Counted from the first letter of the stretch, positions 43,547 through 64,000 are shown. The stretch: 64,000 bases of DNA from an uncultured bacterium (GCA_964398985.1 CAYNOS010000009.1:43-64042); one strand, 5' to 3'. The notes: generated by a model not told the origin, from the letters alone. Numbers and translations are program-made.

Positions 43547-44680
43547 CTAGTCCCAGTCGGTCACGCTAGCGGCCAGCTTCCGTCGGTCGGATCTTGCGTA
43601 ACGACGCGCCATGTCGAGCGTGGCGTGACGTAGGTGGTCCTGCACCAGGCCGAGGTCTCCCGTGCGCTGGTACAGGCGCGTTCCGGCACTGTGCCTGAGG
43701 GCGTGCACGCCCTTGAAAGTGACCTCGGCACGTACGCACACTTTGCGGAGCCGGTTGTAGACACCGAACTGACTGCGTAGCTCCAGCACCGCCTCGCCTC
43801 TGATCCCGCGCGCCTCCTGTGCGCGCCGGTACGTCAACAGCGCCGACGAGAGCTTGACGCTCATTACCACCGTTGCTGCCTTGCCGCCTTTGCCTCGCGC
43901 CACCAAGAGCTCGCCGGACCGGTGGTCGACATCACCCCAGGTGAGCGCCAGCATCTCGCTCACCCGCAGCCCCGCGTGCGATCCCAGGAGCAAGATCACG
44001 CGCTCTTGCTGGTCCCTGGTGGCGTCGAGGAGCCGGCTCAGTTCGGTCTCGCTGTAGATTCGGGCGCCGGGGTTGTCGGCGAGGGACGCGCGCGGCTTGC
44101 CTAGCTTGACGGCCCGGAATGGATCCGCTTCGGTGGCGCCTGCCCAAGCGAGGGCGTCGTACAGGACTCTAGCGGCAGCTACCCGGAGCGACACCGTGGC
44201 GCGGGCCAGAGGACCCCTCTTGGCTCGACGGCCCCGCCCCGAAGGCTTGGTCTCGATGCCAACTTCACCCGCGAGCATCCGCTGGACGTAGTCGCTACCG
44301 GCGTCACGTCCGGGCCGCAGCAGGTTCTCGCCGGACCAAGCCACCAGTAGCGCTTCGAGTCCGCGCCGATAGGCTCGTAGCGTGTGCCTGCTGGTGTCGA
44401 CTCCGCGTGTGCCGTTGAGCGTGAGATAGGCTTCCATCAGCTCCCAAAGGCTTTCGACGTCGCGCTCGGCAGCCGCCGTGACCGCGTAGCGGCGAAGCTG
44501 CTGATCGGACAGGCGGCGCAGCCGTTCGACGCGCTGCAGGCGCGTAGCCATCGATAGCTCGAGGGAGCTGACGGCAGCCGGCTCAAGGCCTGGCTCCAGT
44601 TCCGGCACCCCCGACGACGCCTGGGACGTCGCCTGAGACGTCTCCTGCCCAAGGATTTCCGCGTCTGGACGAGACTTCAC
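43547..44680 (-). mobile_element. Tyrosine-type site-specific recombinase/integrase
   Basis: Catalytic signature AGLRVSE ... HALRHSAGT ... LRHATLDMARRY, with a long N-terminal SAM-like domain. Confidence 0.85.
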
Positions 44681-44714
44681 TCCTGGAGCCTAACTGCCGG
44701 CAAAGGCGCCGGAA

Positions 44715-45209
44715 GTGACGGGGCTCGCATTATCAAATGTTGTTGGACGGCGTACCCTCACCACCGTCCGCCGCTGCTTGAGAACCCATTCTCACCTGCT
44801 AGAGTTAGGGGTGTCCCGAACGACGAACCAGCAGCGAACCGTTCTCGCCGTCCTGAACGAGGCTCCTGGCCCTCTCACGGCGCATGAGGTGTTCGACCGT
44901 GCGCGCGCCTCGCTGAAGGGGATAGGCTTGGCGACCGTCTACCGCAACCTCGGATCGCTCGAGTCCAAGGGCGAGATCGTTTCGGTTCACCTGCCCCAGG
45001 ACCCCGTCCGCTTTGAACCTGCTGGGCGGCAGCACCATCATCACTTTCGTTGCAGGGAGTGCCTGACGGTCTTCGAGCTGCGAGACGACTGCCCGGTGCC
45101 GGGGTTGGAAGGTACGACGCTTCCCGGCGGACTCAAGGTGACCGGCCACGAACTCCTGCTGCTCGGCATCTGCAGCGCTTGTCAAAGCTCACCGGCCAAC
45201 AACCTGTAG
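44715..45209 (+). CDS. Fur family transcriptional regulator
   Basis: QRTVLAVLNEAPGPLTAHEVF ... HHHHFRCRECLTVFE ... CSAC metal sites. The true start is probably downstream (for example GTG 44811). Confidence 0.8.
   Translation: MTGLALSNVVGRRTLTTVRRCLRTHSHLLELGVSRTTNQQRTVLAVLNEAPGPLTAHEVFDRARASLKGIGLATVYRNLGSLESKGEIVSVHLPQDPVRFEPAGRQHHHHFRCRECLTVFELRDDCPVPGLEGTTLPGGLKVTGHELLLLGICSACQSSPANNL
44777..44792 (+). promoter_or_regulatory. Palindrome TGAGAA-N4-TTCTCA upstream of the conserved Fur core; candidate autoregulatory operator
   Basis: 6-bp perfect arms, 19 nt upstream of the alternative GTG start at 44811. Confidence 0.35.
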
Positions 45210-45272
45210 GCTGGGGGAGCAGGCCGTTCCGGCCAGGCGGCTCACGCGCCCGAGAGCGCTTCTGGAGGAGAT

Positions 45273-45758
45273 ATGCCGACCGACCCAGCAGCGGAACTGA
45301 GTGAACTCGAGTTGGACGCTCTTTGGACGATCTACGAGGGCCACAGCCTAGTGATCGAGACGCCGCAGAGCGACGACCTGGACCCAAGCGCGAATGCGAT
45401 TCTCTCGGTCGCCTACGACGAGGCCGACGAGGCTATCGCCGAGGCCGCTGAGATCCCGATGGATACCGTCGAACGCCTCATCGCGATGGGATTCCTCGAA
45501 CGCAGCGATGACGGCCCGGTTCTCGATGCCACCAGTTGGTACGACGATGAGCTTGGCTGCGAGGTTCACGCCGAGGAGTACGTGTTGAGCCGCCTCGGGC
45601 AGCAGGTCGTCGACGCTACCGCCGACGGACCTGGGGAGTTGGGCGACTTCCTCGACGAAGACGAGGATGACGACGAGGACTGGGACGACGACGAAGACCT
45701 CGATGATGAGTTCGGAGACGAACTAAGCGACGACGACGACGAGGACGAGGACCTCTAG
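45273..45758 (+). CDS. Hypothetical extremely acidic protein
   Basis: 161 aa. About 70 percent of the last ~41 residues are Asp/Glu (DEDEDDDEDWDDDEDLDDEF...DDDDEDEDL). I recognised no known motif. Confidence 0.55.
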   Translation: MPTDPAAELSELELDALWTIYEGHSLVIETPQSDDLDPSANAILSVAYDEADEAIAEAAEIPMDTVERLIAMGFLERSDDGPVLDATSWYDDELGCEVHAEEYVLSRLGQQVVDATADGPGELGDFLDEDEDDDEDWDDDEDLDDEFGDELSDDDDEDEDL

Positions 45759-45826
45759 CCGCCGGGGCGACACCACTACAGTCAAGGACTCTGCGCTGAG
45801 GAGCTCGAGCACTTGTCATCGAGGCT

Positions 45827-45869
45827 CTGCAATTGCATTTGATAAGACACCTTATCTTATTGCATATGC
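45827..45869. promoter_or_regulatory. AT-rich ~43-bp imperfect palindrome (TGCAATTGCA-TTT-GATAAG acac CTTATC-TTAT-TGCATATGCA)
   Basis: Three nested perfect palindromes: 45827-45836, 45840-45855 and 45860-45869. It forms a local AT-rich island inside GC-rich DNA. Confidence 0.6.
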
Positions 45870-46030: not shown

Positions 46031-46036
46031 TGAGCC

Positions 46037-46049: not shown

Positions 46050-46074
46050 CTGGTATACCCGGGAGACGCTTAAG

Positions 46075-46722
46075 GTGGCGAGCGCTTCCGCTCGCACGCG
46101 CGGAGCCGCGCTGGAGCAGGCACTCGCAGCCCTCGAGAACTACTTGTCGCTGGTGGAACCAGGCTCCTTGCTTCCGTCAGAGAGGACCCTGTCCAAGCAC
46201 TTCGGAGTCTCTCGCACCACGCTGAGGAGCGCCATCGCCGAACTCGCCGTCAAAGGCAGGCTGGAGATCAGGCATGGCACAGGGACAGTCGTCTTGTCGC
46301 CCCCGCGAGCTGCCGACCTGCGAGGCGCTCCCGCCGCCCATCGGGCGCCGCCCCCCAGGGATTGGCTCGAGATCTGTCACCTCGTCTTGGCTCCGCTGGC
46401 TGGTCTGGCCGCCAGGCGGGCCACGCCAGATCTACATGAGGCACTGGACCGTGCTGCCTCCCGCACCGCCGAGGAGTTCCATGAGGAGCTCGCCGCAGCC
46501 ACCGGCAACGCGGCGGCCCCGGAGCTGCTGGCTTGGCTTCGCGAAGGCGTCGCAGAGTCGATGGTCGTTGCTGTGCCCGAGCGCTCCGTCGGCAGAGAGC
46601 GCCTGCACGTCGACCTGCGGCGTGCCGTCGTCTCCGCGATCGCCGTCGGGGACGCCGCGGCCGCCGAAGGAGCGATGGCCGTCTATCTCGAGACCTATCT
46701 CAGCCCGGTACGACCACCTTAG
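46075..46722 (+). CDS. GntR family transcriptional regulator (FadR/FCD subfamily)
   Basis: N-terminal wHTH LPSERTLSKHFGVSRTTLRSAIAELAVKGRLEIRHGTGTVV plus an all-helical C-terminal domain. Confidence 0.8.
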   Translation: MASASARTRGAALEQALAALENYLSLVEPGSLLPSERTLSKHFGVSRTTLRSAIAELAVKGRLEIRHGTGTVVLSPPRAADLRGAPAAHRAPPPRDWLEICHLVLAPLAGLAARRATPDLHEALDRAASRTAEEFHEELAAATGNAAAPELLAWLREGVAESMVVAVPERSVGRERLHVDLRRAVVSAIAVGDAAAAEGAMAVYLETYLSPVRPP

Positions 46723-46729
46723 ATGGGCG

Positions 46730-48971: not shown

Positions 48972-49943
48972 GTGGTAGCGTCTGGAATGCCGCAGGCAAC
49001 GTCCGGTGAGGGTGAAACTGCGCTCCTCGAAGAAGGAAACTTGGAGGAGGCTCGCAGGCTACTCGAGAGCAGTGGGCGCTACCGGGTCCTGGAGAGGTTG
49101 GACAAGCCCACGACCTTCGCGCCCGGCATCGAGCCCACGCCTCCGCTGTTCACCGGGCTCTACCTGGACGTCGAGACCACAGGCATCGACAGCGCAGATC
49201 AGATCATCCAGCTCGGGTGTCTCGAGTTCGAGTACGACGCCGCCGGCAGAATCCATGCCGTCCTCGATGAGATCGACGAGTACGAGGATCCTGGCCGGCC
49301 GATCCCCCCAGAGATCACACGTCTCACGGGCATCACGGACGCGGATGTGGCGGGCAAGAGGATCGACGAAGACAGGGTCGGTTCCGCCTTGCAGCGCGCG
49401 AACCTCGTGATCGCGCACAACGCGTCCTTCGACAGGCCATTCGTCGAGCGGCGCCTGCCTGACTTCGAGAACGCGTACTGGGCCTGTTCGATCAGCGATG
49501 TCGACTGGCGCTCGGAGGGCTTCGCCAGCAGCAAGCTGGAGTGGCTGGCCTACCAGCACGGGTTCTTCTTCGAGGGACACAGGGCCACCATCGACTGCCT
49601 GGCGGGTGTGCGACTGCTTGCGCTCGAGTTGCCAAAGAGCGGACAGACCGCCATGGCCAAGCTTCGGTCCTGCGCCCAGAAGCGCACCGTGCGGCTCTGG
49701 GCGGTGGGCTCTTCGTTCGACAGCAAGGAGGCCCTGCGCCGACGTGGCTACCGTTGGAACGCAGAAGGCAAGGTGTGGTGGCGCGATCTGACGGCCGACG
49801 ACCACGAGGCCGAACTCGAGTGGTTGAGCGCCAACGCCTACGGCGGCCGCCGCCGGCCCCTCCCCTACTTCGGCTACGACGCCAAGCTCCGCTACTCCGC
49901 CCGCGTGCCGCTCGGGTACTCGCCCACCACGGACGTCCGCTAG
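48972..49943 (+). CDS. DEDDh 3'-5' exonuclease with a C-terminal Trp/Arg-rich extension
   Basis: Exo motifs LYLDVETTG, AHNASFDRPF and HRATIDC. C-terminal RRGYRWNAEGKVWWRDL. The start is likely a downstream Met (MPQATSG). Confidence 0.75.
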   Translation: MVASGMPQATSGEGETALLEEGNLEEARRLLESSGRYRVLERLDKPTTFAPGIEPTPPLFTGLYLDVETTGIDSADQIIQLGCLEFEYDAAGRIHAVLDEIDEYEDPGRPIPPEITRLTGITDADVAGKRIDEDRVGSALQRANLVIAHNASFDRPFVERRLPDFENAYWACSISDVDWRSEGFASSKLEWLAYQHGFFFEGHRATIDCLAGVRLLALELPKSGQTAMAKLRSCAQKRTVRLWAVGSSFDSKEALRRRGYRWNAEGKVWWRDLTADDHEAELEWLSANAYGGRRRPLPYFGYDAKLRYSARVPLGYSPTTDVR

Positions 49944-50024
49944 CTTCCTCGAACCCCCGCCATAGCGATATTGCGTGCGCTACTGCGCAAGCAGCGCCTC
50001 GAGAGGCCGTACCCCAGACGGCCG

Positions 50025-51767
50025 TCAGGTCTTCGCGAGGGCTCTCTTCAGCGATGCCAACGGCAGCGTATTGAGCACCTCGGAAGGCTCGATCCAGGCA
50101 CGCCGCGCCTGCGAGACCCCCAACTCCATGGCGGCGAGCCCGCGGACCGAATGAGCGTCGGTTCCGATGGCTATCACCGCCCCGGCCCGCCTTGCGATCT
50201 CGAGGTTCTCGACGCTCAGATCGAGGCGCTTCCCGGCGGCGTTGAGCTCGACGCACACTCGGTTGGCGACGCACGCCAGCAGCACCGCCTCGAGATCGAC
50301 ATCGATCGGATCCCGCGCACCGATCAACCGGGCCGTCGGATGGGCGAGCACGTTCACTTGTGGGTGCGAGACCGCGCGGATGATCCTCGCCGTCTGCTCC
50401 TCACGGCTGAGGTCCTGATGCGCATGTACGCTGACGATGACCAGGTCGAGGCGCTCCAACCACTCCTCCGGCAGATCGAGCGAGCCATCCTTCAGAATGT
50501 CCACCTCTAAACCCCTGAGCACGGTGATGCCCTCGACCTCGGCCGTCACTGCGTCGATCTCAAGCTGTTGCCGCTCGAGCTTGGCCGCGTCGAGCCCTCC
50601 CAGGAACGCTTGGCTGGCGCTGTGGTCGGTGATCGCGACGTACTCGTAACCCCTGGCTCGGGCAGCCAGCACCATGTCGCGGATCGAGTCGCGTCCATCC
50701 GACCAGGTGCTGTGCATGTGAAGGTCACCCCGGATGTCCGCGAGTTCGATCAGCGACGGGAGATTGCGCGCCGCCGCTGCTTCGATCTCACCTCGTCCCT
50801 CGCGCAGCTCGGGAGGGATGAATGCCAAGTCGAGCAGGCCGTAGATCTCCTCCTCGCTGGCACCGCCCAAGCGCCTGCCGCCCGCCCTCTCACGGCCCGG
50901 CGCACCACCCTCGAAGAGACCGTACTCGTTGAGGTGCCAGCCTCTCTCCAGTGCTCGCTGACGCAGGGCGACTCCGTGCTCCTTGGAACCCGTGAAGTAG
51001 AGCAGCGCAGCACCGAAGCTCTCCGGAGCGACGACGCGCAAGTCGACCTGCAGCCCGTTGCCGAGCACCACCGACGTCTTGGTCTCGCCGCTGCCCAGCA
51101 CCTCCCGCACGTCCGGCCAACTGGTCAGTGCCTCTGACACCGGCGCGCCGTCGAGCGTTGCCGCGATCAGGTCGATGTCACCGACGCTCTCACGCCGCCT
51201 GCGGTAGGAGCCGGCGACCTCCAGCCGCGCTACCGACGGGGCCGCCCGGAGCCGCGCCAGCAGCGGCTGAAGGACGCCATCGACCTCCGACAATCGCAGC
51301 CGCCCCACGTTGCGCCTGAAGCTCTCGATCCCCTTCAGGATCCGCTGCTCGGTCTTCTCTCCGAACCCGGCCAGTCCCGCGACCCGACCCGCGATCGCTG
51401 CCGTCTCGAGGTCATCGACCGTAGCCACGGCGAGCCCCTCCCACAGGGCCCGCGCCTGCTTCGCTCCCACGCCCTTGATCTGCGTGAGCTCGAGGAGGCC
51501 CTCAGGAACCCTCTCGCGCAACGCCGCCAGCTGGGGCAATGTCCCGGTCTCGACTAGTACCTCGAGCTTCCTGGCGATCTCCTTGCCGATGCCCTTGATG
51601 GCCGTCAGATCGTGGCCTGCCGCCAGCAGCACAGAAACCTGATCATCGAGAGCGCTGACGGTGCCGGCGGCGTTGCGGTAGGCCCGCACGCTGAACGGGT
51701 TCGCGCCGTCAAGCTCGGACAAGTCGGCCAGCAAGAGCAGGTGGCGCGCCAGTTCGGCGTTCGTCAC
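50025..51767 (-). CDS. polX: Family X DNA polymerase with PHP domain (PolX)
   Basis: N-terminal HhH/Pol-beta-like region ([10 protein letters not shown] ... [15 protein letters not shown]) and C-terminal PHP ([11 protein letters not shown]). The GTG start overlaps the ligA TGA as GTGA. Confidence 0.9.
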
Positions 51768-53797
51768 GACGCCTCCGCCCGCTGCGCGACCAGCGCGAGG
51801 TACTCCTCCTCGCTCAGGACCTCGACGCCCAGCTCCTCGGCTCTCGTCAGCTTCGATCCCGCCCCTGGTCCCGCGACGAGGTAACTCGTCTGTCGACTCA
51901 CGGAACCTGACGCCTTCCCGCCGAGTCCCCTCACTTGCTCCTCGGCCTCTCCCCTGCTCATGGTCTCGAGCGACCCGGTGAACACGAACGTCATGCCCTC
52001 GAAGGGCGCGGCGGCCCCCGCCCCCGGTTCCTGCCGCTCGGCACTCAGGGGACGCAGTCGACCAGCGAGGAGCCGATCGAAGGCGGCGGCGTTGGCCGGT
52101 TCGGCGAAGAAGCCGCTGATCTGTTCGGCCATCACCCTGCCGATGCCCTCAACCTGCATCAGCTCGTCGACGCTGGCGGCCCGAACACTCTCGATGTCGC
52201 CGAAGTGCGCAGCGAGGCTCCTGGCGACCGCACTGCCGACCTCCGGCACCCCGAGTGCGAACAGCAGCCGCGGCAGTTCCGGTTGCGACGAGGCGGCGAT
52301 GGCAGCCACCAGTTTGGCTGCCGACTTCTCTGCGAAGCCTTCGAGCCCAGCGACCTGCTCCTGAGTGAGGTCGAACAGATCGGCAGGCTCGCTGATCAAG
52401 CCGGTCTCGACCAGCTGCCTGACCGTGCGTTCGCCAAGGCCTTCTATGTCGAGGCCGCCGCGGCTCCCGAAGTGCGTCAGGCGTCCCACCAGTTGTGCAG
52501 GGCACCCGAAGCTGTTCGGGCACACGGTGTAGGGCCCGCGGCGAGCCAACGCGGTGCCGCAACTGGGGCACACGGTCGGCATGGCGAAAGGCGCCCCTCT
52601 GTGCGCCGCCGTCTCGATGACTTCGACCACCTGGGGAATGACGTCCCCGGCGCGCTCGACGCGCACCTCATCGCCCTCGCGAATGTCCTTGCGTTCGATG
52701 TCGTCGACGTTGTGCAGGTTGGCTCGACTGACAGTGACTCCGCCGATGTTGACGGGGCGCATCAGCGCAATGGGAGTCACCACCCCGGTGCGTCCGACGC
52801 TGGGGACGATCTTCAGTACCTGCGTGATCTCCTTGCGCGGCTTGAACTTGAGCGCATACGCCCACCGCGGATGGTGCGACGTGGTCCCCAGGCGCTCCCT
52901 GGCCGCGATGGCGTCCAGCTTGACCACGACGCCGTCGATCTCGTAAGGCAGTTCGTCGCGCTGTGCCTCGATCTTCCCGAAGTACTCGAGGATGCCTTCA
53001 ACGTCGGTCGTGGTCTCGTTGAGCCGGTTGACCGGCAGTCCCCAGTCGGCGAGAGCGCTCAGCAGTTCGCCCTGCGAGTCGAACTCCTCCCCGCCGGCCA
53101 GCAGGTCGTAGCAGTAGAGGCGCAGCGGCCGCATGGCCGTGAGCCGAACGTCCTGCTGCCTGATCGTTCCCGCCGCGGCGTTGCGTGGGTTCGCAAACGG
53201 CTCCTTGCCTTCGTTGAGCTGCTCGGCGTTGATGTTCTCGAAAGCGCTCAGCGGCAGGTAGATCTCACCGCGCAACGCGACCTCTTCTGGAACGGCACGG
53301 TGCGTGTCGTGAAGGCGCAGCGGGAGCGAGCGGATCGTCCGCACGCCGGCGGTGATGACCTCCCCCACCAACCCGTCACCGCGTGTCACGGCACGCTCCA
53401 GGACGCCGCGTGAGTAGACGAGTTCCACGCTCAGCCCATCGATCTTCGGCTCCAGAGAGTAGGCGACCGTCGTGCCCTCTCCCAGGCCACGACGCACCCG
53501 CCTGTCGAATGCGACAACGTCCTCTTCCCTGGCGCTCGAGTCGAGGCTCAGCATCGGCGCAGCATGGCGTGCCGTGACGACTCCCGAAGCGGGGGCACCG
53601 CCGACTCGTTGCGTGGGTGAGTCCGCGGTTACGAGCGCAGGAAAGCGGTCCTCGAGATCCCGAAGCTCGCGAACCAGTTCGTCATAGAGCTCGTCGGAGA
53701 CCTCGGGGTCGTCGAGAACGTGGTAGCGGTGATCATGGCGTCTGATCTCTCGCCGAAGCGTCTCCAAGCGAGCTGTGGCTGCCTTGAGATCGTCCAC
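51764..53797 (-). CDS. ligA: NAD-dependent DNA ligase
   Basis: Adenylation motif EPKIDGLS, zinc finger CPSCGTALARRGPYTVCPN, HhH repeats and a C-terminal BRCT (FVFTGSL). Confidence 0.95.
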   Translation of the reverse strand: MDDLKAATARLETLRREIRRHDHRYHVLDDPEVSDELYDELVRELRDLEDRFPALVTADSPTQRVGGAPASGVVTARHAAPMLSLDSSAREEDVVAFDRRVRRGLGEGTTVAYSLEPKIDGLSVELVYSRGVLERAVTRGDGLVGEVITAGVRTIRSLPLRLHDTHRAVPEEVALRGEIYLPLSAFENINAEQLNEGKEPFANPRNAAAGTIRQQDVRLTAMRPLRLYCYDLLAGGEEFDSQGELLSALADWGLPVNRLNETTTDVEGILEYFGKIEAQRDELPYEIDGVVVKLDAIAARERLGTTSHHPRWAYALKFKPRKEITQVLKIVPSVGRTGVVTPIALMRPVNIGGVTVSRANLHNVDDIERKDIREGDEVRVERAGDVIPQVVEVIETAAHRGAPFAMPTVCPSCGTALARRGPYTVCPNSFGCPAQLVGRLTHFGSRGGLDIEGLGERTVRQLVETGLISEPADLFDLTQEQVAGLEGFAEKSAAKLVAAIAASSQPELPRLLFALGVPEVGSAVARSLAAHFGDIESVRAASVDELMQVEGIGRVMAEQISGFFAEPANAAAFDRLLAGRLRPLSAERQEPGAGAAAPFEGMTFVFTGSLETMSRGEAEEQVRGLGGKASGSVSRQTSYLVAGPGAGSKLTRAEELGVEVLSEEEYLALVAQRAEAS

Positions 53798-53887
53798 CCG
53801 ACCATCCTAAGCATGCGAACACCAAAGAGCCTGACCGCCAGAGCGTTGGTGCCGACCGTCTGTCGAGGCTGGTGGGCGGTGACCCAG

Positions 53888-54229: not shown

Positions 54230-55741
54230 CTAGACAGTGTCCTTGAGCTCGGCGACGATCTGCTCAGCGATGTCCTTCGGGTACTCGGCCAAGAGGTCGA
54301 AGGTGGCGAGGTAGTTGGCGATGTCTTGCAGATGCGTCGGCAGCGACGCGAAGCCGTGGCTCAGCATCACTTCGAGGCGACTCGACTCGTAGAGCGGGCC
54401 CTGCCAACCGTCGGAGTTGAGTCGGTCGAGGGTGAAGCGGTGGAGCGTGGCGTTCATCAACGTATGAACCAGCTCGCGGTTCTCGTTGTTGAGCTCCTCC
54501 CATGCCGTCTGCACCCTCTGCCGGCGGCTATGGTGGAAGCTGTCGGCGAACGAGGTCGCGATGCTCCGCACCTCGTCCCGACTCAGGCCCTCGCGCTCTG
54601 CCTCTTCGGGTTCGCGAGGGGGTTCGACGCCCTGCTGCAGCAAGCTGTTCACGAAACCGGCGACATTGTAGATGGGTCTGCCGGCCGACTCGGACTTCGC
54701 CTGCAGTCTGCGAGCGTAAGCGACGATCTCAAGCACTCGCTGCGCCCCGTACCTCTGAATCGTGCGCTCGGCGTCCTGGGTCCAGCCGATCTCACGGAGT
54801 GCATCCAGCGCCTGTAGCTCCTTCAACAGCTGTTCCTTGTCGGCATCGCGCTGGACGCGGCGCGCCAGGCTCTCGGGCAGGCGCACGCGAGGCTGAAAGA
54901 CCTCGTTCTTGAAGATGCTGAAGGTCACGCGCTGGTACTTGCGGCCCACCTTCTTTGCAACGTAGTCGAAACCCAAGCTGGTGTAGCGGGAGAACTCGTC
55001 TTGAGCGCGATCGAGCACGTAGCGGAAATCCTTGAAGCGTTCGTACTTTCCGTCCAGGCCGAGGCGCAGTTTGAGGTCGTCGACGTCGAAGGTCAACTCG
55101 CTGCGTTCACCGGCGTAGCTGGCCGTATACAGCACTTCGAAGAGCCTCATGCTGTTGAAACTCTCGAAACTCAGCAGCTGCTCGGTCGGGATGATGCTGA
55201 AGTCGCGGCGCAGCTGGATCAGGTAGGGCTTGAGCTTGTCATGGATCTTCAGCTCGATGCACGCCATCTGGTCCCTGCTGTCGCGACCGTTCTCGTAACG
55301 CGCTTCCGAGACCCACTGAAACATCACCCAGTCGCCGTTCGGCTCCTTGACCTGCACAGTCTGTTCGAGCAACTCGCGCGCCGACTCCTCGATACGCGAG
55401 TAGATGCTCTTGCCCGTGATGTTGAACAGCTGGGAGTACTCCCATGCCGTGATCCGTATCGGCTCGATCGTAAGATCGTCCTTGGTGATGTCAGAGAGCG
55501 CAAGCACCAGCAACCGCTTGGTGAGGATCCCCATGTCTTGGCGACTCAAGGCCAGGGTGTTGGCCTGCGTAACGGCGAGCTTGGTCCCGCTACGACGCTC
55601 GCTGCCCCGCTTGGCCTGCCTCGGCCGCCCGCGACCACGACCGCCAGCACGCGGTCCCTTGCCCAGCGGCTCGATCAGCACCTCTCCCCTGCCCTCTTCG
55701 GCCCCACTTGCCGTCATCGCCCCGCCTCGCCCTCCGGACAC
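54230..55741 (-). CDS. Plasmid-type replication initiator (Rep_3/RepB-like)
   Basis: The core (VTQANTLALSRQDMGILTKRLLVLAL ... FESFNSMRLFEVL ... LRLGLDGKYERFKDFRYVL) resembles iteron-binding Rep_3 initiators. The gene has a GTG start and sits next to iterons and parAB. Confidence 0.75.
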   Translation of the reverse strand: MSGGRGGAMTASGAEEGRGEVLIEPLGKGPRAGGRGRGRPRQAKRGSERRSGTKLAVTQANTLALSRQDMGILTKRLLVLALSDITKDDLTIEPIRITAWEYSQLFNITGKSIYSRIEESARELLEQTVQVKEPNGDWVMFQWVSEARYENGRDSRDQMACIELKIHDKLKPYLIQLRRDFSIIPTEQLLSFESFNSMRLFEVLYTASYAGERSELTFDVDDLKLRLGLDGKYERFKDFRYVLDRAQDEFSRYTSLGFDYVAKKVGRKYQRVTFSIFKNEVFQPRVRLPESLARRVQRDADKEQLLKELQALDALREIGWTQDAERTIQRYGAQRVLEIVAYARRLQAKSESAGRPIYNVAGFVNSLLQQGVEPPREPEEAEREGLSRDEVRSIATSFADSFHHSRRQRVQTAWEELNNENRELVHTLMNATLHRFTLDRLNSDGWQGPLYESSRLEVMLSHGFASLPTHLQDIANYLATFDLLAEYPKDIAEQIVAELKDTV

Positions 55742-55788: not shown

Positions 55789-55830
55789 CTATTCCCCTTT
55801 TTCTCCCACTATGAGGGGGTGGCGCGTTAA

Positions 55831-55961
55831 GTCCCCCCGGTTCCCCGCCTGAGTCCCCCTGCGTTCCCGCTTGGTCCCCCTCCCTTCCCAGCCAGTCCCC
55901 GCTCCTTTCCCGACTCGGTTCCCCATCTCACCCCCTACGGTCCCTCTACTTCCCCAGCTTC
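55831..55961 (+). repeat. Six tandem 21-23 bp iterons (GTCCCCnnnn(G)TTCCCnnnnnn), i.e. 12 half-units phased at ~10.8 bp
   Basis: Unit starts are 55831, 55853, 55874, 55895, 55918 and 55940. T-CCC cores recur every 10-12 bp. Confidence 0.8.
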
Positions 55962-55995
55962 CTTCCTCCAAGCGCGTGCTGGACGGCCTTCGCAT

Positions 55996-56046
55996 GCTCT
56001 CTAAAGTAGAATGGAATAGAACTGAAGAATAGACAGCAATCACTTG
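55996..56046. other. AT-rich segment, candidate DNA-unwinding element of the origin
   Basis: ctctaaagtagaatggaatagaactgaagaatagacagcaatcac. It is flanked by iterons on both sides, and the GAATAGA motif is repeated within it. Confidence 0.55.
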
Positions 56047-56090
56047 CTGTTGACTGGAGATCAAGGTGAGCCGTCCTCTGACGCCAGCGA

Positions 56091-56142
56091 GTACCCTGGC
56101 TTTCCCGGCTACCTACCCCGGTCCCCTCTCTTCCCCACTTCC
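56091..56142 (+). repeat. Two further iteron copies, same orientation
   Basis: gtaccctggctttcccggctac (56091-56112) and gtcccctctcttccccacttcc (56121-56142). The second closely matches the unit at 55940-55961. Confidence 0.7.
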
Positions 56143-56308: not shown

Positions 56309-56366
56309 CGCAATAACGTTATGGCTCGGAGCCGGGTCTCCGTCGGCGCCGCAATAACGCTATGGC
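56309..56366 (+). repeat. Two copies of a 17-bp element containing a 16-bp near-palindrome GCAATAACG(T/C)TATGGC; candidate parS or par operator
   Basis: 56309-56325 and 56350-56366 match at 16 of 17 positions and sit 41 bp apart, about 125-180 bp upstream of parA. Confidence 0.5.
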
Positions 56367-56489
56367 ACGAAGTCGACGCAGCCTGAGCGGACGCGAATGC
56401 TCGCTGCATCCGGGCTACAATCGCCGCATGACGGTGCTTGGCCGGCGTCCGGCCTGTTGCGAACGTGCCGGAGCAGGGCGGCGGCAACC

Positions 56490-57278
56490 ATGCAGGTGCT
56501 GACGTTCTTCAACCACGCCGGCGGTGTTGCGAAAACCAGCTCCGTAAGGGATCTCGGGTATGTGTTCGCCGAGGGCGGCAAGCGCGTTCTCCTGATCGAT
56601 CTCGATCCGCAGGCCAACCTGACCCGTTGGCTCGGAATCTCAGGAGCCGTGGGCCTCGAACAGACGGTCTACCCAGCGGTGATGAGTGAAGCGACAGAAC
56701 TGGAGGCCGCCTCCCTGCCATTGCCCGTGCGAACTCATGGCATGGACCTCGTTCCTGCAACGCTGAAGTTGGCGGCGCTCGAGCGCGAACTGGTCGGCCA
56801 GTTCATGGGGGTCGTGCGATTGCGCGAGGCGCTGCGGCGCCTTGAGTCGTACGACCTAGTGCTCATCGATCCGCCCCCGAGCCTGGGTCAGCTGTCCGCG
56901 TTGGCGGTGGTGGCGGCCGATCGCGTAGTGGTGCCGCTACCGACGAACAGGAAGGGCATAGACGGCCTGGCAGCCGTTCTCGGCATGGTGAAGGAGTATC
57001 GGAGGGCCGCCCCCGGTCTCGACGTGGCACTCTTCATCCTGACGCAGCACGACCGGCGGACACGCCATGACCGCGAGAGCCTGGCGGCGATTCGCAGGCA
57101 GTTGTCGGCGGTGGCGCCGGTGTCCACGCCGTTGCACAGCCGGCCGGCTTACTACTCCGACGCCCAGATCGCCGGTGCTCCGGTGCCGGTGTTCGCACCG
57201 GGAAGCGAGGCGGACTTGGAGATACGGCAAGTGGCACGCGAGTTGAGCGCTGCGATGGAGGGAACCACACGTGGCTAG
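56490..57278 (+). CDS. parA: ParA-family partition ATPase (deviant Walker A lacking the signature lysine)
   Basis: MQVLTFFNHAGGVAKTSS ... LLIDLDPQANLT ... VLIDPPPSLG. I prefer the ATG at 56490 over the track start at 56397. Confidence 0.85.
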   Translation: MQVLTFFNHAGGVAKTSSVRDLGYVFAEGGKRVLLIDLDPQANLTRWLGISGAVGLEQTVYPAVMSEATELEAASLPLPVRTHGMDLVPATLKLAALERELVGQFMGVVRLREALRRLESYDLVLIDPPPSLGQLSALAVVAADRVVVPLPTNRKGIDGLAAVLGMVKEYRRAAPGLDVALFILTQHDRRTRHDRESLAAIRRQLSAVAPVSTPLHSRPAYYSDAQIAGAPVPVFAPGSEADLEIRQVARELSAAMEGTTRG

Positions 57279-58227
57279 GCGAAAGAGCGACATCGATCGA
57301 GCGGCAGTCTTCGAAGCGATCCTCGGAGATCTCGGCGAAGTGAGCGCGGGGGGTCTTAGCGGCCCAGCGACCATTCCGTTGCAGGCGATTAGCTTCAACC
57401 CGCGTCAGCCGCGCAAGCATGTGGGCGAGGATGGGCTGGAGGAGCTGGCGGCATCGATTCGCGAGCGCGGGGTTCTTGAGCCTGTGATAGTGCGTCCGGC
57501 GGCAAGCGGCTATGAGTTGGTGGCTGGCGAGAGGCGGACCCGCGCTGCGGCTCTGGCAGGGCTCACCGAAGTCCCCGCGATCGTCATCGAGGTCGACGAT
57601 CGCGGCGCGCTCGAGATCGCGATGATCGAGAACCTGCAGCGGGAGGATCTCAATGCGGTGGAGGAGACCGAAGCCCTGCTCGGTCTGTTAGAGATTTCAC
57701 TGGATCGCAGCAGAGACGAAGTCGTGGCTCTGCTGCAGGCTCTCTACGGCGAGGAGCGAGGTCGGCCCGTATCTGGCAGGTTCAGCGAGCAGGAGCGGAG
57801 CGAGACTCACGCGCTGTTCTCGCGGCTGGGGCGCTTCAGCCTCAGCTCCTTCGTGAGCAATAGGCTGCCGATCCTCGAGTTCCCTGCGCCGCTGCTCGAG
57901 GCCGTGCGGGGAGGGAAGCTGGCGTTCACGAAGGCCCAGGCGATCGCGCGGGTCGAGGATGGAGGCGACCGCCAGAGGCTACTGCGCGCGGCCATCAGCG
58001 ACGATCTGTCCCTCAGTCAGATCAGGCGACGGATCACGGAGCTGAGGCGTGGCGGGAGCGGCGAGAGCCCTGGCCACGCTGTGCCGGCCTCAGTTGCGAC
58101 CCAGACGTTGGCATCGAACACCAAGAGGCTGTTGAACCGCCGGAAGCTGGCGGGACTGTCGGTGGAGCGCCTGGACAGGGTCAATGAGCTGCTGCGCGAG
58201 TTGCGAGAGGTCCTGCAAGGCGACTGA
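57271..58227 (+). CDS. parB: ParB/Spo0J-family partition protein
   Basis: PRQPRK..., GVLEPVIVRP, the arginine patch VAGERRTRAA, and an HTH region. It overlaps parA by 8 nt. Confidence 0.88.
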   Translation: MARRKSDIDRAAVFEAILGDLGEVSAGGLSGPATIPLQAISFNPRQPRKHVGEDGLEELAASIRERGVLEPVIVRPAASGYELVAGERRTRAAALAGLTEVPAIVIEVDDRGALEIAMIENLQREDLNAVEETEALLGLLEISLDRSRDEVVALLQALYGEERGRPVSGRFSEQERSETHALFSRLGRFSLSSFVSNRLPILEFPAPLLEAVRGGKLAFTKAQAIARVEDGGDRQRLLRAAISDDLSLSQIRRRITELRRGGSGESPGHAVPASVATQTLASNTKRLLNRRKLAGLSVERLDRVNELLRELREVLQGD

Positions 58228-58309: not shown

Positions 58310-58786
58310 ATGTTGGAGGTAGGAGATTACGCTCCTGAGTTCGAGTTGCCGGACCAGGACGGGAGAGTGTGGACGCTCAGGGGGGAACGCGGAAGTTGGG
58401 TCGTCGTCTACTTCTACCCGAAGGACGACACGCCAGGTTGCACCGCCGAAGCGTGTGCGTTCCGCGATGCGCTGCCTGTGTTTGAGGAACTCGACGCCAG
58501 AATCTTCGGGGTCTCGAGCGATGACCAAGACAGCCACGCTGCGTTCAGCAGCAAGTTCGATCTGAACTTCCCGCTGCTGGCCGATCCGGATCGCCAAGCA
58601 CTCGAGGCATATGGTGTCTACGGCGAGAAGGAGCTTGCCGGAACCAAGTACATGGGCACGCACCGCAACACGTTCCTCGTCGGGCCGGATGGTCGCATTG
58701 CGCACATCTGGCGCAAGGTCGATCCGGCCGTCCACGGCGACGAGGTGAAGGCCGCGTTGGAAGCGCTGCGGGGTGGATTTGCCTAG
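58310..58786 (+). CDS. bcp: Thioredoxin-dependent peroxiredoxin (Bcp-type)
   Basis: VVVYFYPKDDTPGCTAEAC ... GVSSDDQDSHAAF. Confidence 0.88.
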   Translation: MLEVGDYAPEFELPDQDGRVWTLRGERGSWVVVYFYPKDDTPGCTAEACAFRDALPVFEELDARIFGVSSDDQDSHAAFSSKFDLNFPLLADPDRQALEAYGVYGEKELAGTKYMGTHRNTFLVGPDGRIAHIWRKVDPAVHGDEVKAALEALRGGFA

Positions 58787-59092: not shown

Positions 59093-62000
59093 TCACCCGC
59101 CGTAGTGATAGCCGCGCACCGTGATCGGCATGGGTAGAGCCGCCAAGGTAGTGGCTTTCAGCGCCGGCTGATGCCCTGTGTCTTCGACGGTTGCGTCGAC
59201 GACTAAGAACGACGCATCCCTGAGCAGGCTGCGGTGGCTGGCCCACAGGTCGGGGGAGATGATGAGCTGCGCTCGGTGGGGGCCGTCTTCGATGACGAAG
59301 AAGGCGAAACCTTTGGCGGTAGGCGGCTTCTGGCGCGCCACCACCATGCCTGCAGTGCGAAGCAGAGTCTTGCGGGCGCTGCGGCGGGCGCGCCAAAGAG
59401 GCACGCACCCGAGCTCGCGGAGCTGATCTCTCACCAAGTCGGCTGGGTGCACCTCGAGTGTGCTGAGGCGCGTCGTTTCGAAGTCCCATACGAAGCGGTC
59501 CGCCACCGGTAGGGGAGCCAGCGAGGGCGTTTCGGGGACGCCTACCAGAAGAGTGGCCGCGCCGGCGACGTGGGCATTGCAGAGCACACCGACCCGGTAG
59601 AGCGCCTCGCGTCGAGGTTGCACGTCGTCGAAGGCGCCAGCACGCACCACGGCCTCGAGTGCCTCGCGGGGCACAGCGAGACGTTGGTAGAGGTCGTCGA
59701 CGTCTCGGTACGGTCCGTGGCGTAGCCGTTCGGTGAGGATCTCGGTGGACACGCTATGCGACACGTCCTTGATCTGGCTCAATGGAGGCCGGATCGCTTT
59801 TACCCGCCCGGTCGTCTCCGAGATGGCGAGTTCACAGCGGTAGTGCGCGCCGCTACGGTTGATGTCGAATGGGAGGAAGGGAACGCCCCACGAGCGCGCC
59901 TCATGGCGCTTGGTGAGTTGCGGCCACATGCCTGGCTCCTCGGACAGGATGGCGGCCATGTACTCGGCCGGGTAGTGAACCCGCAACCAACCAGAGGCGT
60001 AGGCGTGCTGCGCGAAGGCCCATGCGTGCGACTCGGCGAAGCCGAAGCCTTGGTAGTTCTTCACGGCATCGAAGACGGCCGTGGCCTCTTCGCGACTGGC
60101 GCCGACATGGCGCATGCCTCCCGCGATGAAGGCGTCGCGGTATGGCTCGATGTCGGAGACGGAATCTCCCCAGTCGGAGACCATCTTGCGGAAGCGGGAC
60201 GCCTCGGTCCAGGTCATGCCGGCGAAGTGCACGGCGATGCGCAGCACATCATCCTGGAAGAGCAGGACGCCGTAGGTCTTGGACAGCAGCTTCTCCAGGC
60301 TGGGGTGCCAGTAGCTGATGGGTTCCTTGCCCTGACGCCGTCGGAGGTAAGGGTGCACGGTGCCGGACTGGATCGGGCCGGGACGGATCAGCGCCACTTG
60401 ATGGGCGAGGTCTCTGAGGTTTCGAGGCCGCATGGCGCGGCTCGTTTGCATCTGGCTGGGGCTTTCGACCTGGAACAGCCCCAGGGTCGCGCCCTCTGCG
60501 ATCAGGTCCCAGACGCGCTCGTCATCTGGCAGCGTGAAGAGGTCCAGCCAGGTGCCTTCGATACGAAACACTTCCTCGCGCGCGCGTTCGAGAGCGGCCA
60601 GCATGCGCAGGCCGAGTAGGTCGAGCTTGACCAGCCCCATGGCCTCGGCGTCGTCCTTGTCGAGTTGGAGCAGACGGATGCCACCGGTCGAACGCTCCAG
60701 CGGCGAGTAGTCGGTGAGCTCGCCGCGTACCATCACCACGCCGCCGGAGTGCGGAGCCAGGTGCCGCGCGTGCTTGCTCTCCATGCCGGTCAACAGATCG
60801 AGCAGGACGGTGAGCGCAGGCGCATCGCCGCACACCTCGCGCAGCGCTGCGGTCGCCAGATGTGCCTGAGGTGGACGGCGGCCGCGGAAATCGCGCCCTA
60901 ACGCCCGGCTCAGCCGGTCTCTGAGCTCCTTGGGTAGGCCCAGTGCCCGACCCATGTCTTGCAGTGCCAGAGGGAGGCGGTAGGTGATCTTGTTGCAGAC
61001 CATCGCCTCGGTGGTGGCGCCGAAGTGCTCCTCGACCCAAGCCAGGAGGTCGTCGCGGCGGGCCGACGAGACGTCGATGTCGATGTCGGGCATCGCTTTC
61101 ATGCCGGTGTGCAAGAAGCGCTCGAAGAGCAGGCCGTTGGCGATGGGGTCGGCCTTGGTGACGCCGAGCAGGTAGCAGACCACGCTGGCCGCTGCCGATC
61201 CGCGGCCCGTGGCGAGGATGCCACTGCGCCGGCAGTGGTCGGTGACCTCGGCCGCTACCAGGAAGAAGTCGGCGAGATCGTAATCACGGATGACAGCGAG
61301 CTCCTCGCGGAGGCGTGCTTCTGCCTCGGTGCGCAGGCCAAGGTCCGGATAACAAGTGGCGAGGGCGGTGTGGCAACGACCTTCCAGATGCTGTTGTGGG
61401 GTCAGCCCTGACGGCACGCGTGCGCGAGGGGGTGTGACGCGCTCCGGCAGCAGTTCGAAGCTGGCTTGTTCCGCCACCCAGGCGGCGTTGAGCCTGGCTT
61501 CGGGGAAGGGGAGACGGTCGGCAACGTCGACCGGCGCCGGCAGATGCTGACAGGCGTTCTGGGGTCGGCGCGGATGCGGCTGTTGCACGCTGATGCCCAG
61601 CCGCGCACAGACCAGCGCGTCGTAGAGCCGGTAGTCCGAGGCCTGCGCGTATCTAACCTCGGGGGCGGCGACTACCGGCAACGACTGGCTCTGCGCTAGT
61701 TGCCTGATGACCCGCGCTCGCCGTGAGTCCCAACGGTAACGATCGTGGAAGAGCTGCAAGTAGAAGCGCTCGCCGAACGCCTCCTTGAGCCGGGCGAGCA
61801 GACGCTCCAGCTCGGTAATGCGCCGCTCGGCCAAGAGCTTCGCCACCACTCCCTCGCGCGGGCCACTCAAAAGGATGACGTCCTCGGCGTGCTCGAGGAG
61901 CGTCTCGAGGTCGACATCACGCTCGTCGCGCGCATGCAGGCGCGTCAGGAGCCTACAGATGGTGGCGTAGCCGCTGCGTGATGCTGCCAGTAGGACGAAC

Positions 62001-62248
62001 GGATAGCTCGCCCCGTTGCTGATGACCGGCACCGTCGCGCCGATGAGGGCCTTGATGCCGTTCTCGCGCGCCGCTTGGAAGAGCTCGACGCCGCCGGTGA
62101 TGTTGGCATCGTCGGTAAGGGCGATGTGGTTGTAGCCGAGTTCCGCAGCGCGCTTCACCAGCGTGGTGGGGCTCGCGGTCCCCGCGCCGAAACTGAAGTA
62201 GGAGTGGACGTTCAGCAGCGCTGTCAGTCGCTCATCTTGGCTAGCCAC
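59093..62248 (-). CDS. dnaE2: Error-prone DNA polymerase (DnaE2-type Pol III alpha paralogue)
   Basis: PHP N-terminus LNVHSYFSFGAGTASP, about 1050 aa, immediately downstream of imuB. I prefer the GTG at 62248, which has AGGGGA 6 nt upstream, over the track start at 62356. Confidence 0.88.
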   Translation of the reverse strand: MASQDERLTALLNVHSYFSFGAGTASPTTLVKRAAELGYNHIALTDDANITGGVELFQAARENGIKALIGATVPVISNGASYPFVLLAASRSGYATICRLLTRLHARDERDVDLETLLEHAEDVILLSGPREGVVAKLLAERRITELERLLARLKEAFGERFYLQLFHDRYRWDSRRARVIRQLAQSQSLPVVAAPEVRYAQASDYRLYDALVCARLGISVQQPHPRRPQNACQHLPAPVDVADRLPFPEARLNAAWVAEQASFELLPERVTPPRARVPSGLTPQQHLEGRCHTALATCYPDLGLRTEAEARLREELAVIRDYDLADFFLVAAEVTDHCRRSGILATGRGSAAASVVCYLLGVTKADPIANGLLFERFLHTGMKAMPDIDIDVSSARRDDLLAWVEEHFGATTEAMVCNKITYRLPLALQDMGRALGLPKELRDRLSRALGRDFRGRRPPQAHLATAALREVCGDAPALTVLLDLLTGMESKHARHLAPHSGGVVMVRGELTDYSPLERSTGGIRLLQLDKDDAEAMGLVKLDLLGLRMLAALERAREEVFRIEGTWLDLFTLPDDERVWDLIAEGATLGLFQVESPSQMQTSRAMRPRNLRDLAHQVALIRPGPIQSGTVHPYLRRRQGKEPISYWHPSLEKLLSKTYGVLLFQDDVLRIAVHFAGMTWTEASRFRKMVSDWGDSVSDIEPYRDAFIAGGMRHVGASREEATAVFDAVKNYQGFGFAESHAWAFAQHAYASGWLRVHYPAEYMAAILSEEPGMWPQLTKRHEARSWGVPFLPFDINRSGAHYRCELAISETTGRVKAIRPPLSQIKDVSHSVSTEILTERLRHGPYRDVDDLYQRLAVPREALEAVVRAGAFDDVQPRREALYRVGVLCNAHVAGAATLLVGVPETPSLAPLPVADRFVWDFETTRLSTLEVHPADLVRDQLRELGCVPLWRARRSARKTLLRTAGMVVARQKPPTAKGFAFFVIEDGPHRAQLIISPDLWASHRSLLRDASFLVVDATVEDTGHQPALKATTLAALPMPITVRGYHYGG

Positions 62249-62373
62249 CAAGCATCCCCTTCCCGGAACAGCTCCGCCCTGACGCCACCTTCGATCTCGA
62301 CAAGGTAGTAGTCCCGATTGATCTCGCCATCCCACCAATGCCCGTCGTAGCGCCACTGGTCCACGATCCGCAC
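62224..62373 (-). CDS. Small Trp-rich ORF between imuB and dnaE2 (function unknown)
   Basis: (V)RIVDQWRYDGHWWDGEINRDYYLVEIEGGVRAELFREGDAWWLAKMSD. Third-position GC is about 78 percent by hand count. The frame stays open up to 62508, overlapping the imuB tail, and the ORF overlaps the dnaE2 start by 25 nt. Confidence 0.5.
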   Translation of the reverse strand: MRIVDQWRYDGHWWDGEINRDYYLVEIEGGVRAELFREGDAWWLAKMSD

Positions 62374-62377
62374 GACG

Positions 62378-63811
62378 CTACGTGGAAGGAGCTGCGAGCG
62401 GCGACGTTGGCGTCGAGACTGGCCCTGAGCCAGGGGATCCCAACTCACGGTGGCGGGTGTCTGTTGCGGTGTCAATGTCACCGCCGCGGGGGTCAGTAGT
62501 TGTCGCATGAGGCCTCGTTACGGGAAGCTGGGTGGTGTCGGCGTCAGGCGTGGGCGGTTCGAACAGCGGGACCGCGGTGACGGCAGCCCGAAGCGAGCTC
62601 GGGACGGCGGCCCGGGACGCTCGCGTGCCGGGCCGCGGCGGCCGCCGGATCGCGATGGCGGGGTGCGTTGCTCCGGGTTCGAGCGAGTCGCTGTAAGCTT
62701 GCCAGCTCCACGCGAGGTCGTCGGCTTGGGTGTGGGGATCGCGCCATTCCAAGCGCCTGGGAGCGTGAGGGAAGCGCTCGAAGGTCGCTTCCAGTGCTCT
62801 TTGCCTGCGCTCCCGTTGCGGCCACAGGCCGTCTTGTTGGGCTGCGCGCTGTGGGTCAGAGAGTTCGATCGTCAGCCTCTCGATGTGCTGACCGGCGACG
62901 CCGCTGTCACGTAGCGCGAACAGAGCCTGCTGACGGATGTGCCGCGCTTGAGCCAAGGGCCGTTTGCTGAGCCGGCTGGCGCGAAGCTGGCCGACACCTA
63001 GCGCGGTGGTGAGCGTCAGGCGGTGCGAAGCGCGACCGTCGAGTGCGCGCTCCAGCTCCGACGAGAGCTTGTCCAGCGCAGGGATCAGTTGCCGTGGCTC
63101 CCGAACAGGTCGAGAGAAGGCCAGCGAACGCGCGAGGGTCTCGGGCAGGCTGAACGGTCTGAGGACGTCCCGCCTGGGGCCATGCAAGTAAGCGATGAGC
63201 GCCGACCCCTCTTCGCCCAGGTAGGAACTCAACTGCGGCTTGGTCCAGGCAGCAAGGTCAGCCGCAGTGTTGATGCCCAACCACTCGAGGCGCGTGAGGT
63301 TGCGAGCGCTCAACGCTACGCCTTTGAGGAAGCGTAAAGGTAGGCGGGCAAGGAAGGCGGTTTCGGCGGCTGTGGTGGGTGCTATCTTCCTGCAGGCGCC
63401 AGGGCTGGTAGCCAATGCGGCGAGCTCGGCCAGCTCACAGTTGCGAGCCACGCCGACGCTGACATCGAAACGGTGAGCTAGTTGAACGGCTTCGGTGGCC
63501 GCGACCTCGACGAACGCCAGTCCGCGGCGGGCGCCCTCCACCCAGGGGGTAATGGCGTGGAGTTCCCCCAGCAACTCCCGCCAACCGTGTTCAAGGTCGG
63601 GTTCGGGGATGGACACGACCCGCAGCCCCTCGACCCGCAAGCGCGCACCGTCCAGCAGCATGCCGGCGCTGATGCCATGGCGGCGGGCCAGGGCGTTGGC
63701 GTGCAGCACACGCCCGTCTTCGACGTGTACCAGCGGCGTGCGCGACAAGACCGGGTCGGCGCGCCGCGCTAGGTAGAGCGGCAGGGGAGTGAAGCAGAGC
63801 GCGGCGATCAT
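62378..63811 (-). CDS. imuB: ImuB/ImuY-like Y-family polymerase homologue (mutagenesis cassette)
   Basis: N-terminus MIAALCFTPLPLYLA is typical of ImuB. Y-family little-finger-like middle region, low-complexity C-terminal tail, and a position upstream of dnaE2. Confidence 0.8.
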   Translation of the reverse strand: MIAALCFTPLPLYLARRADPVLSRTPLVHVEDGRVLHANALARRHGISAGMLLDGARLRVEGLRVVSIPEPDLEHGWRELLGELHAITPWVEGARRGLAFVEVAATEAVQLAHRFDVSVGVARNCELAELAALATSPGACRKIAPTTAAETAFLARLPLRFLKGVALSARNLTRLEWLGINTAADLAAWTKPQLSSYLGEEGSALIAYLHGPRRDVLRPFSLPETLARSLAFSRPVREPRQLIPALDKLSSELERALDGRASHRLTLTTALGVGQLRASRLSKRPLAQARHIRQQALFALRDSGVAGQHIERLTIELSDPQRAAQQDGLWPQRERRQRALEATFERFPHAPRRLEWRDPHTQADDLAWSWQAYSDSLEPGATHPAIAIRRPPRPGTRASRAAVPSSLRAAVTAVPLFEPPTPDADTTQLPVTRPHATTTDPRGGDIDTATDTRHRELGSPGSGPVSTPTSPLAAPST

Positions 63812-64000
63812 CGCCCGGCCGTCCCCGGTTGAGGTTGAGCACGACCGGCCACCACTGCTCGTATGCGCGTAGACAGCCGGGGGCGTAGAGCGGGCGCTCT
63901 GCCCGGTCGGCGCGGTGGGGATGGCAGCGGAGGAACCGGCGCGTTCGCGGTTGACGGTGATAGCATGACCTCGTACCTGACGGTTGGAACGCTAAGAGCG

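Follow-up and report, generated by a model that had tools for sequence, protein, structure and literature searches.

A 64-kb Rep_3 replicon with ligA, polX and polA, a probable small chromid of uncultured Trueperaceae

Background

The 74,114-bp circle p74 of Leptospira biflexa has its par and rep genes at the origin predicted from skew, and it carries recBCD, which relocated from the chromosome and is chromosomal in relatives (PMC2229662). It is the closest analogue of the replicon described here, which was found in a stretch of 64,000 nucleotides (nt) from an uncultured bacterium (GCA_964398985.1, CAYNOS010000009.1:43-64042; hereafter the window) and is likewise a small circle with a partition operon and a rep gene at the skew-predicted origin together with housekeeping repair genes. 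The window is probably a near-complete small chromid of an uncultured member of the Trueperaceae (Deinococcota) that is vertically inherited and holds the orthologous, and probably the only, ligA, polX and polA of its lineage. The initiator is a Rep_3 iteron protein, whereas that of p74 is a phage LE1-type Rep, and the cargo consists of ligA, polA, polX, lexA-imuY-dnaE2 and rarA instead of recBCD. The lineage occurs in about 50 species, whereas p74 is known from one.

The secondary replicons of Deinococcus radiodurans, which belongs to the same phylum, also have a direct-repeat origin array directly upstream of parAB. In its chromosome II and megaplasmid these arrays were reported to bind DnaA and ParB, and the origin region also has a centromere-like function (PMC7671480). 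In contrast, the repeats of the window adjoin a Rep_3 gene of their own, DnaA boxes are missing, and the iterons are distinct from the palindromic candidate parS. Chromosome II and the megaplasmid measure about 412 kb and 177 kb, respectively, against 64 kb for the window replicon. Rep_3 iteron plasmids (the class of F RepE, pPS10 RepA and Acinetobacter RepM) share with the window an initiator with WH1 and WH2 domains and direct iterons of about 22 bp by an AT-rich stretch next to rep, but the Rep of the window is a 503-amino-acid (aa) protein with N- and C-terminal extensions, and its origin lacks a DnaA box.

The repair cassette of the window resembles lexA-imuY-imuB-C-dnaE2 of D. deserti (Deide_1p01870-1p01900; PMC8072749) in gene order, in the presence of a small open reading frame (ORF) and in the absence of imuA; the "1p" of these locus tags suggests a plasmid location. 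An 80-aa ImuB-C gene lies between imuY and dnaE2 in Deinococcus (PMC8072749). The small ORF of the window, compared with its Trueperaceae counterpart, is 45% identical (E 7e-11) to an 83-aa ORF at the same position in the relative L067. The window cassette may be regulated by LexA.

Circular closure of the window

Three Logan contigs from three samples (L052, L053 and L054; 99.9-100% identity), retrieved via an exact-protein look-up of the window imuY, run from window position 781 to 1, through 54 nt, and on from 64000 to 61439. In L054, for example, positions 1-781 correspond to window 781-1 and positions 836-3397 to window 64000-61439, both at 100% identity (blastn). Because base 64000 joins base 1 via these 54 nt, the source of the window is circular and measures about 64,054 bp, of which 54 nt are missing from the window. 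The gene order of the three contigs is oppA-oppB-oppC-pepF-eamA-lexA-imuY-dnaE2-bcp-parB-parA. The first gene of the window, lexA, and the last, imuY, are an adjacent pair on other contigs (L001, L006, L030, L034, L047, L052-L054 and L067), and the gene order over the 64000/1 junction is collinear with that of L001, L034 and L067. A JGI contig whose Rep is 67% identical is contiguous over polA...rarA...ABC-lexA-imuY-ORF83-dnaE2-bcp-parBA-rep...ligA. The last 22 nt of the window had no match in the metagenome scan, and no plasmid near-identical to the window is present in PLSDB.

An earlier note on this DNA had described the last ~20 kb as a plasmid-like module lying inside something else, starting with a tyrosine recombinase and running through the genes for a DEDDh exonuclease, polX, ligA, a Rep_3 initiator with iterons, parAB and an imuB-dnaE2 cassette, with polA 10 kb upstream. 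Every gene that it named was found in place by Pfam and NCBIfam, polA included, but the module itself did not survive: since the whole window closes as a circle, this part is simply where the replicon has its maintenance genes; polA belongs to the same replicon, which takes up the entire 64 kb.

Replication initiator and candidate origin

The Rep protein matches PF01051 (84.7 bits) and PF21205 (41.9 bits), both above cut-offs, and scores far under the cut-offs of the NCBIfam RepE and RepM models. Its longest ORF encodes 503 aa, and 495 aa are called in other assemblies; an exact look-up of the 503-aa form matched nothing because of this difference in start codon, and that of the 495-aa version (P0001) led to a 16-kb contig ending in iterons. 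Homologues form more than 100 clusters in public data, nearly all 59-85% identical, and every named source belongs to the Trueperaceae. The closest plasmid Rep in PLSDB is 27% identical. The N terminus is extended by an Arg/Gly-rich tail of some 55 aa, and the C-terminal part of the protein, some 220 aa long, has no family match, including in Pfam. It is about 200 aa above the typical Rep_3 size, and a length of about 480-530 aa is kept in the more than 100 homologues.

The 655-nt spacer between rep and parA holds 15 of the 55 plus-strand KTYCCC half-sites of the whole 64 kb; the iterons listed in the earlier note are real and non-random. Eleven of them lie within 150 nt, against at most three elsewhere, and they are spaced by 10-12 nt; Tandem Repeats Finder reports a 22-nt period (3.8 copies) in the same region. 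GGGRAM-rich rep-parA spacers recur in relatives. The half-sites form two blocks on either side of an AT-rich stretch, in which the 60-nt segment at 55994 (37% GC) is tied for the minimum of the replicon. Once detrended, the cumulative GC skew reaches its lowest point at about 56 kb, and the skew switches from -0.16 to +0.12/+0.15 over the rep-parA spacer. It remains positive across dnaE2 and imuY, which are both on the minus strand, and the pattern fits replication and not transcription. As the earlier note had also remarked, no cluster of DnaA boxes is present (one match with one mismatch in the window, against 2.6 expected).

These features point to a candidate origin at 55.8-56.15 kb. The Rep_3 initiator would bind the two KTYCCC iteron blocks that flank the AT-rich unwinding stretch (55.83-56.14 kb) and replication would start there, with forks departing in both directions.

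Partition genes and a conserved palindrome

parA and parB form one operon coding for a Walker-type ParA and a ParB with both N-terminal and HTH domains. The nearest plasmid ParBs, 42-45% identical, are found on cyanobacterial, Deinococcus and Thermus plasmids. A 16-bp palindrome has six matches in the window against 0.26 expected, and its consensus GCCATAACGTTATGGC, derived from 106 sites in the loci of 50 species, is a perfect palindrome; in 12 loci it gave 41 strand-hits, against none in shuffled sequence. The sites of the 50 loci lie mostly directly upstream of parA, and others downstream of polX or near bcp. The copy that follows polX is also present in L001, L006, L012, L013, L017, L019, L023, L026, L034 and L048. 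No canonical parS was found in the window, and GCCATAACGTTATGGC is a candidate parS or par operator. ParA and ParB would act on these palindromes: a pair upstream of parA and, at a distance of about 6 kb, a single copy downstream of polX.

Conservation in the Trueperaceae

Anchored on Rep, a scan of the GTDB species representatives recovered 50 distinct loci, one per species, with a Rep identity of 64-85%. Wherever a family or phylum name is available for these loci, it is Trueperaceae or another Deinococcota label, bar one 1.5-kb contig, and homologous contigs are binned in metagenome-assembled genomes (MAGs) of Trueperaceae or other Deinococcota wherever the record title states a taxon. The odd contig, L016 (CAZTPJ010000187.1), carries a 99%-identical Rep fragment and was binned in a Phycisphaeraceae MAG, almost certainly by error; apart from it, the species of the window is missing among the GTDB representatives found.

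The core order in relatives is dnaE2-bcp-parB-parA-ori-rep-ligA-polX-DEDDh, with lexA-imuY ahead in several. By tblastn, bcp-parB-parA-rep is found nearly everywhere and ligA-polX is no more than 10 kb from rep in about 30 of the 50 loci; the DEDDh gene, which adjoins polX in relatives too, and the 131-aa ORF often come after ligA-polX, and lexA-imuY-dnaE2 often comes before bcp. The LigA contexts sampled on 142-kb and 166-kb contigs are this same ligA-polX-DEDDh locus, and the exact imuY protein is present on four further contigs. On the other side of the recombinase, L065 matches the gene order ABC-HD3-MFS-rarA-PPC-rSAM-lepB-polA-TPR-GGDEF/EAL-surE-exo-CBS-crp for about 27 kb (ABC transporter through crp), and L056, L058 and L066 match it in part. 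Synteny is kept on both sides of the block proposed in the earlier note. In 12 species a polA homologue is linked to rep or ligA on one contig, and in a 215-kb contig the distance between polA and rep is about 25 kb.

With a core that recurs in 50 or more species of Trueperaceae, the replicon is no recent plasmid. This core has probably been passed on vertically over these species, along with ligA-polX-DEDDh and bcp-dnaE2 and, in some of them, lexA-imuY, and the rarA...polA...crp block, which includes HU in at least one species, is syntenic wherever sampled.

Composition and absence of an island boundary

The composition of the replicon is uniform. The GC content of third codon positions (GC3) is 0.81 before 43.5 kb and 0.79 after, without any step, the two parts agree closely in relative synonymous codon usage (RSCU; r = 0.99), and the tetranucleotide profiles of all 8-kb segments show correlations of 0.94-0.98. 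Neither the contrast between 1-43 and 43-64 kb nor the flanking att repeats that the earlier note had brought up were found, there being no convincing pair of att-like direct repeats around the recombinase region (~40-50 kb). Pfam scans of about 50 window ORFs revealed no relaxase, type IV secretion or phage genes, and the HerA/FtsK-like ATPase beside polA has only weak TraD-type matches in NCBIfam. The window has no tRNA or other Rfam match, and no rRNA, tRNA or ribosomal-protein genes lie within the 64 kb.

The Xer-like recombinase does not mark an island boundary. It scores 61-81 bits on the XerC, XerD and XerA models of NCBIfam, far under cut-offs, and is absent within 10 kb of rep in more distant relatives (tblastn). 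It may resolve dimers of the replicon. Among near-identical strains, 27 synonymous and 13 non-synonymous single-nucleotide polymorphisms (SNPs) were counted, of which ligA has six and two, respectively.

ligA, polA and the chromid reading

The ligase is complete, with an NCBIfam equivalog score of 793 bits against a cut-off of 369, K118 in the KIDG motif and a four-cysteine zinc finger. In clusterings that take in the top 120 hits, 111 of 121 LigA sequences form a single Trueperaceae cluster with Rep-linked members in every subcluster, and 116 of 121 PolA sequences form a single cluster, where members linked to Rep or LigA occur in most, not all, subclusters. This favours ligA and polA as orthologues rather than extra paralogues; they may be single-copy and essential.

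Chromids are reportedly recognized, following Harrison et al. in 2010, by plasmid-type replication and partition, chromosome-like composition, core genes in sole copy that other species keep on the chromosome, and conservation in a genus or family. The window replicon has plasmid-type maintenance genes (Rep_3 with iterons, and ParAB, without dnaA or DnaA boxes), and at the family level 50 GTDB species, more than 100 Rep clusters and a syntenic core. It also carries the housekeeping genes lepB, HU, surE and PFOR. The suggestion of the earlier note that the DNA comes from a secondary replicon or chromid with core genes is supported by the circular closure and the conserved core synteny. Chromids are known, as are multipartite genomes in Deinococcus and Thermus; to our knowledge, neither has been described for the Trueperaceae.

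Several observations weigh against the chromid reading. The short-read contigs L051 and L052 both end within the origin region, and continuity over 55947-56114 in this strain rests on the window itself and on relatives. Circularity is shown for no relative, a 61,422-bp contig of one of them having no terminal overlap. The homologous region lies on 132-285 kb contigs in relatives, which means either an at least four-fold range of replicon sizes or a chromosomal location in some lineages. A more divergent second ligA or polA (<58% identity, outside the top 120) may also exist. Finally, Truepera radiovictrix, whose genome is the only complete one in the family, has a single replicon and lacks extrachromosomal elements (PMC3072082); it is absent from the Rep hit lists as well as from those of LigA and PolA, and its copies of ligA, polA, lepB and HU must be chromosomal, given that single replicon.

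Alternative explanations

The window could instead be, as the earlier note also considered, an accessory repair plasmid, a genuine circle on which ligA, polA and polX are extra paralogues of canonical copies on the host chromosome. LigA does occur on 217 of the 72,556 PLSDB records, some of them annotated ligA_2, and these records are mostly megaplasmids or chromids, or mislabelled chromosomes; Deinococcus plasmids also bear extra recA copies and lexA-imuY-dnaE2 cassettes (PMC8072749). We nevertheless regard this origin as unlikely, as the top 120 hits contain no separate Rep-unlinked Trueperaceae clade of LigA and no clear one of PolA, each ligA or polA context sampled is one syntenic locus, and the housekeeping genes lepB, HU and surE travel along. 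Conservation in at least 50 species, a uniform and perhaps chromosome-like codon usage and purifying selection speak against it as well.

Two further explanations place the locus on a large chromosome. It might be a region of the main chromosome, or an old integrated plasmid with persisting rep and par, the 64-kb circle being an assembly artefact or a transient excised form; homologous regions do lie mid-contig on 142-285 kb contigs, a tyrosine recombinase is present, and short-read assemblies end in the iteron region. Yet the junction was recovered at 99.9-100% identity in three independent samples and in the ancestral gene order, there are neither att repeats nor a compositional boundary, and synteny is kept on both sides, all of which makes a plasmid integrated next to core genes, one of the readings in the earlier note, very improbable. 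Across 50 species the rep and parAB genes, like the iterons and the palindrome, remain intact and are conserved at 64-85% identity, which argues for a functioning origin, and the GC skew flips at this origin. Hardly credible is a Rep-dependent origin of a large, primary-like Trueperaceae chromosome, of which the window would be a mis-circularised piece: the window has no DnaA boxes and rep is found mid-contig on a 285-kb contig, but the window closes at 64 kb, and these 64 kb hold no rRNA, tRNA or ribosomal-protein genes.

Gene content and other features

The coordinates of the features are given in Table 1. Pfam gave no matches for the 546-, 131-, 91- and 161-aa proteins or for a 49-aa ORF.

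Table 1. Features of the window, by position
Feature	Coordinates	Strand	Basis and remarks
lexA	48..683	-	Peptidase_S24 + HTH
rarA/mgsA-type replication-associated recombination ATPase, 743 aa	22555..24786	-	syntenic in L058, L065
lepB, signal peptidase I (housekeeping)	26964..27971	+	syntenic in L065
HerA/FtsK-like P-loop ATPase, ~805 aa	28009..30426	-	directly upstream of polA
polA, DNA polymerase I	30572..33343	+	Pfam; domains for all three activities
HU-type DNA-binding protein	39858..40151	+	syntenic in L056
Tyrosine recombinase, Xer-like	43547..44680	-	Pfam Phage_integrase + SAM_1
Fur	44715..45209	+	
Acidic protein, function unknown	45273..45758	+	
GntR/FCD regulator	46075..46722	+	
Proteins of 546 aa and 131 aa, no known function	between GntR/FCD regulator and DEDDh		
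DEDDh 3'-5' exonuclease	48972..49943	+	RNase_T; NF006615, 323 bits
16-bp palindrome, third copy	49959..49974		DEDDh/polX convergent spacer
polX with PHP domain	50025..51767	-	Pfam; overlaps ligA stop codon
ligA, complete NAD-dependent DNA ligase	51764..53797	-	all domains including BRCT
16-bp palindrome, weaker copy	53837..53852		
Rep_3 initiator	54230..55741	-	Pfam Rep3_N 1e-23, Rep3_C 1e-10; WH1 + WH2
Iteron block A	55830..55961		~6 x 22-bp degenerate repeats = 12 KTYCCC half-sites, ~11 bp apart
AT-rich stretch, candidate DNA-unwinding element	55985..56060		37% GC
Iteron block B	56095..56140		3-4 half-sites, across AT-rich stretch from block A
16-bp palindrome, two copies	56310..56325, 56351..56366		upstream of parA
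parA, Walker-type ATPase	56397..57278	+	Pfam AAA_31 3e-34; NCBIfam ParA_partition
parB	57271..58227	+	Pfam ParB_N 3e-30 + HTH_ParB
AhpC/Bcp peroxiredoxin (bcp)	58310..58786	+	Pfam; constant neighbour of parB in relatives
dnaE2, error-prone Pol III alpha paralogue	59093..62356	-	Pfam; syntenic in relatives
Small ORF, ImuB-C-like	62230..62376	-	between imuY and dnaE2
imuY/imuB Y-family polymerase homologue	62378..63811	-	Pfam IMS
lexA-imuY spacer	63940..64000 + 54-nt gap + 1..47		site of GGTGATAGCATNACCTCGNACCTGACGGTNGGAACGC

The window and L001 agree almost fully in the sequence GGTGATAGCATNACCTCGNACCTGACGGTNGGAACGC upstream of imuY, despite a protein identity of only about 75-85%; this sequence is a candidate SOS box or promoter of the mutasome operon. 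Some relatives carry a gene for an SRAP protein (a YedK-type abasic-site sensor) between rep and ligA (L061 8881-9546, L067 11624-12286), a further repair gene beside the origin. The acidic protein has an Asp/Glu-rich C-terminal tail encoded by GAC/GAG repeats (45653-45752), and a 3-nt indel at 45741-45743 separates near-identical strains (L051).

In the polA block, the HerA/FtsK-like ATPase is kept upstream of polA in L056 and L066. The ORFs 37414-38853(-) and 38197-38865(+) overlap antiparallel, with Pfam matches to RNase_T and CBS, respectively. Both are over-extended: the first has 479 aa as drawn, against about 300 aa in the exonuclease of relatives, and the CBS gene on the opposite strand is real, but the CBS protein of relatives has about 150 aa. 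Relatives carry dinB (Pol IV) between surE and the exonuclease gene, where the window has none. A heliorhodopsin gene adjoins rarA in L058 (1575-2387 of a 61,652-bp JGI contig). The divergent hxlR-yceI spacer contains a 17-nt tandem repeat, GTGCTTGACAATATGGT (2.1 copies, 40600-40635), which is probably an operator. With a GC3 of 0.54, against about 0.8 in all other genes, and no family match, the ORF 41323-41904 (193 aa) is unlikely to be a gene, and some 1 kb (41.2-42.3 kb), close to the broad GC-skew maximum, is then free of convincing genes.

Implications

The locus yields a new, deeply conserved Rep_3 lineage, a defined candidate origin and the candidate parS GCCATAACGTTATGGC, a possible starting point for genetic tools in this group of uncultured extremotolerant bacteria. 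It also cautions that plasmid-like contigs of MAGs may harbour core replication genes. As a chromid, the window would be unusual in its small size and in the concentration of replication and repair genes beside its origin. If ligA and polA are single-copy here, it would be among the smallest chromids known, and lagging-strand maturation of the chromosome would rely on a 64-kb Rep_3 replicon.

A bolder proposal, which we offer tentatively and consider possible rather than likely, is that a large uncultured clade of Trueperaceae has its sole genes for NAD-dependent ligase, Pol I and Pol X on a small Rep_3 chromid, no more than about 25 kb from the origin, together with an SOS mutasome, RarA, HU and two DEDDh exonucleases, as a "repair toolkit on a lifeboat". 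If this were true, a small target and possibly a higher copy number would keep the repair genes intact and expressible after desiccation or radiation has shattered the chromosome, and the main chromosome would depend on a plasmid-type replicon for the maturation of its Okazaki fragments.

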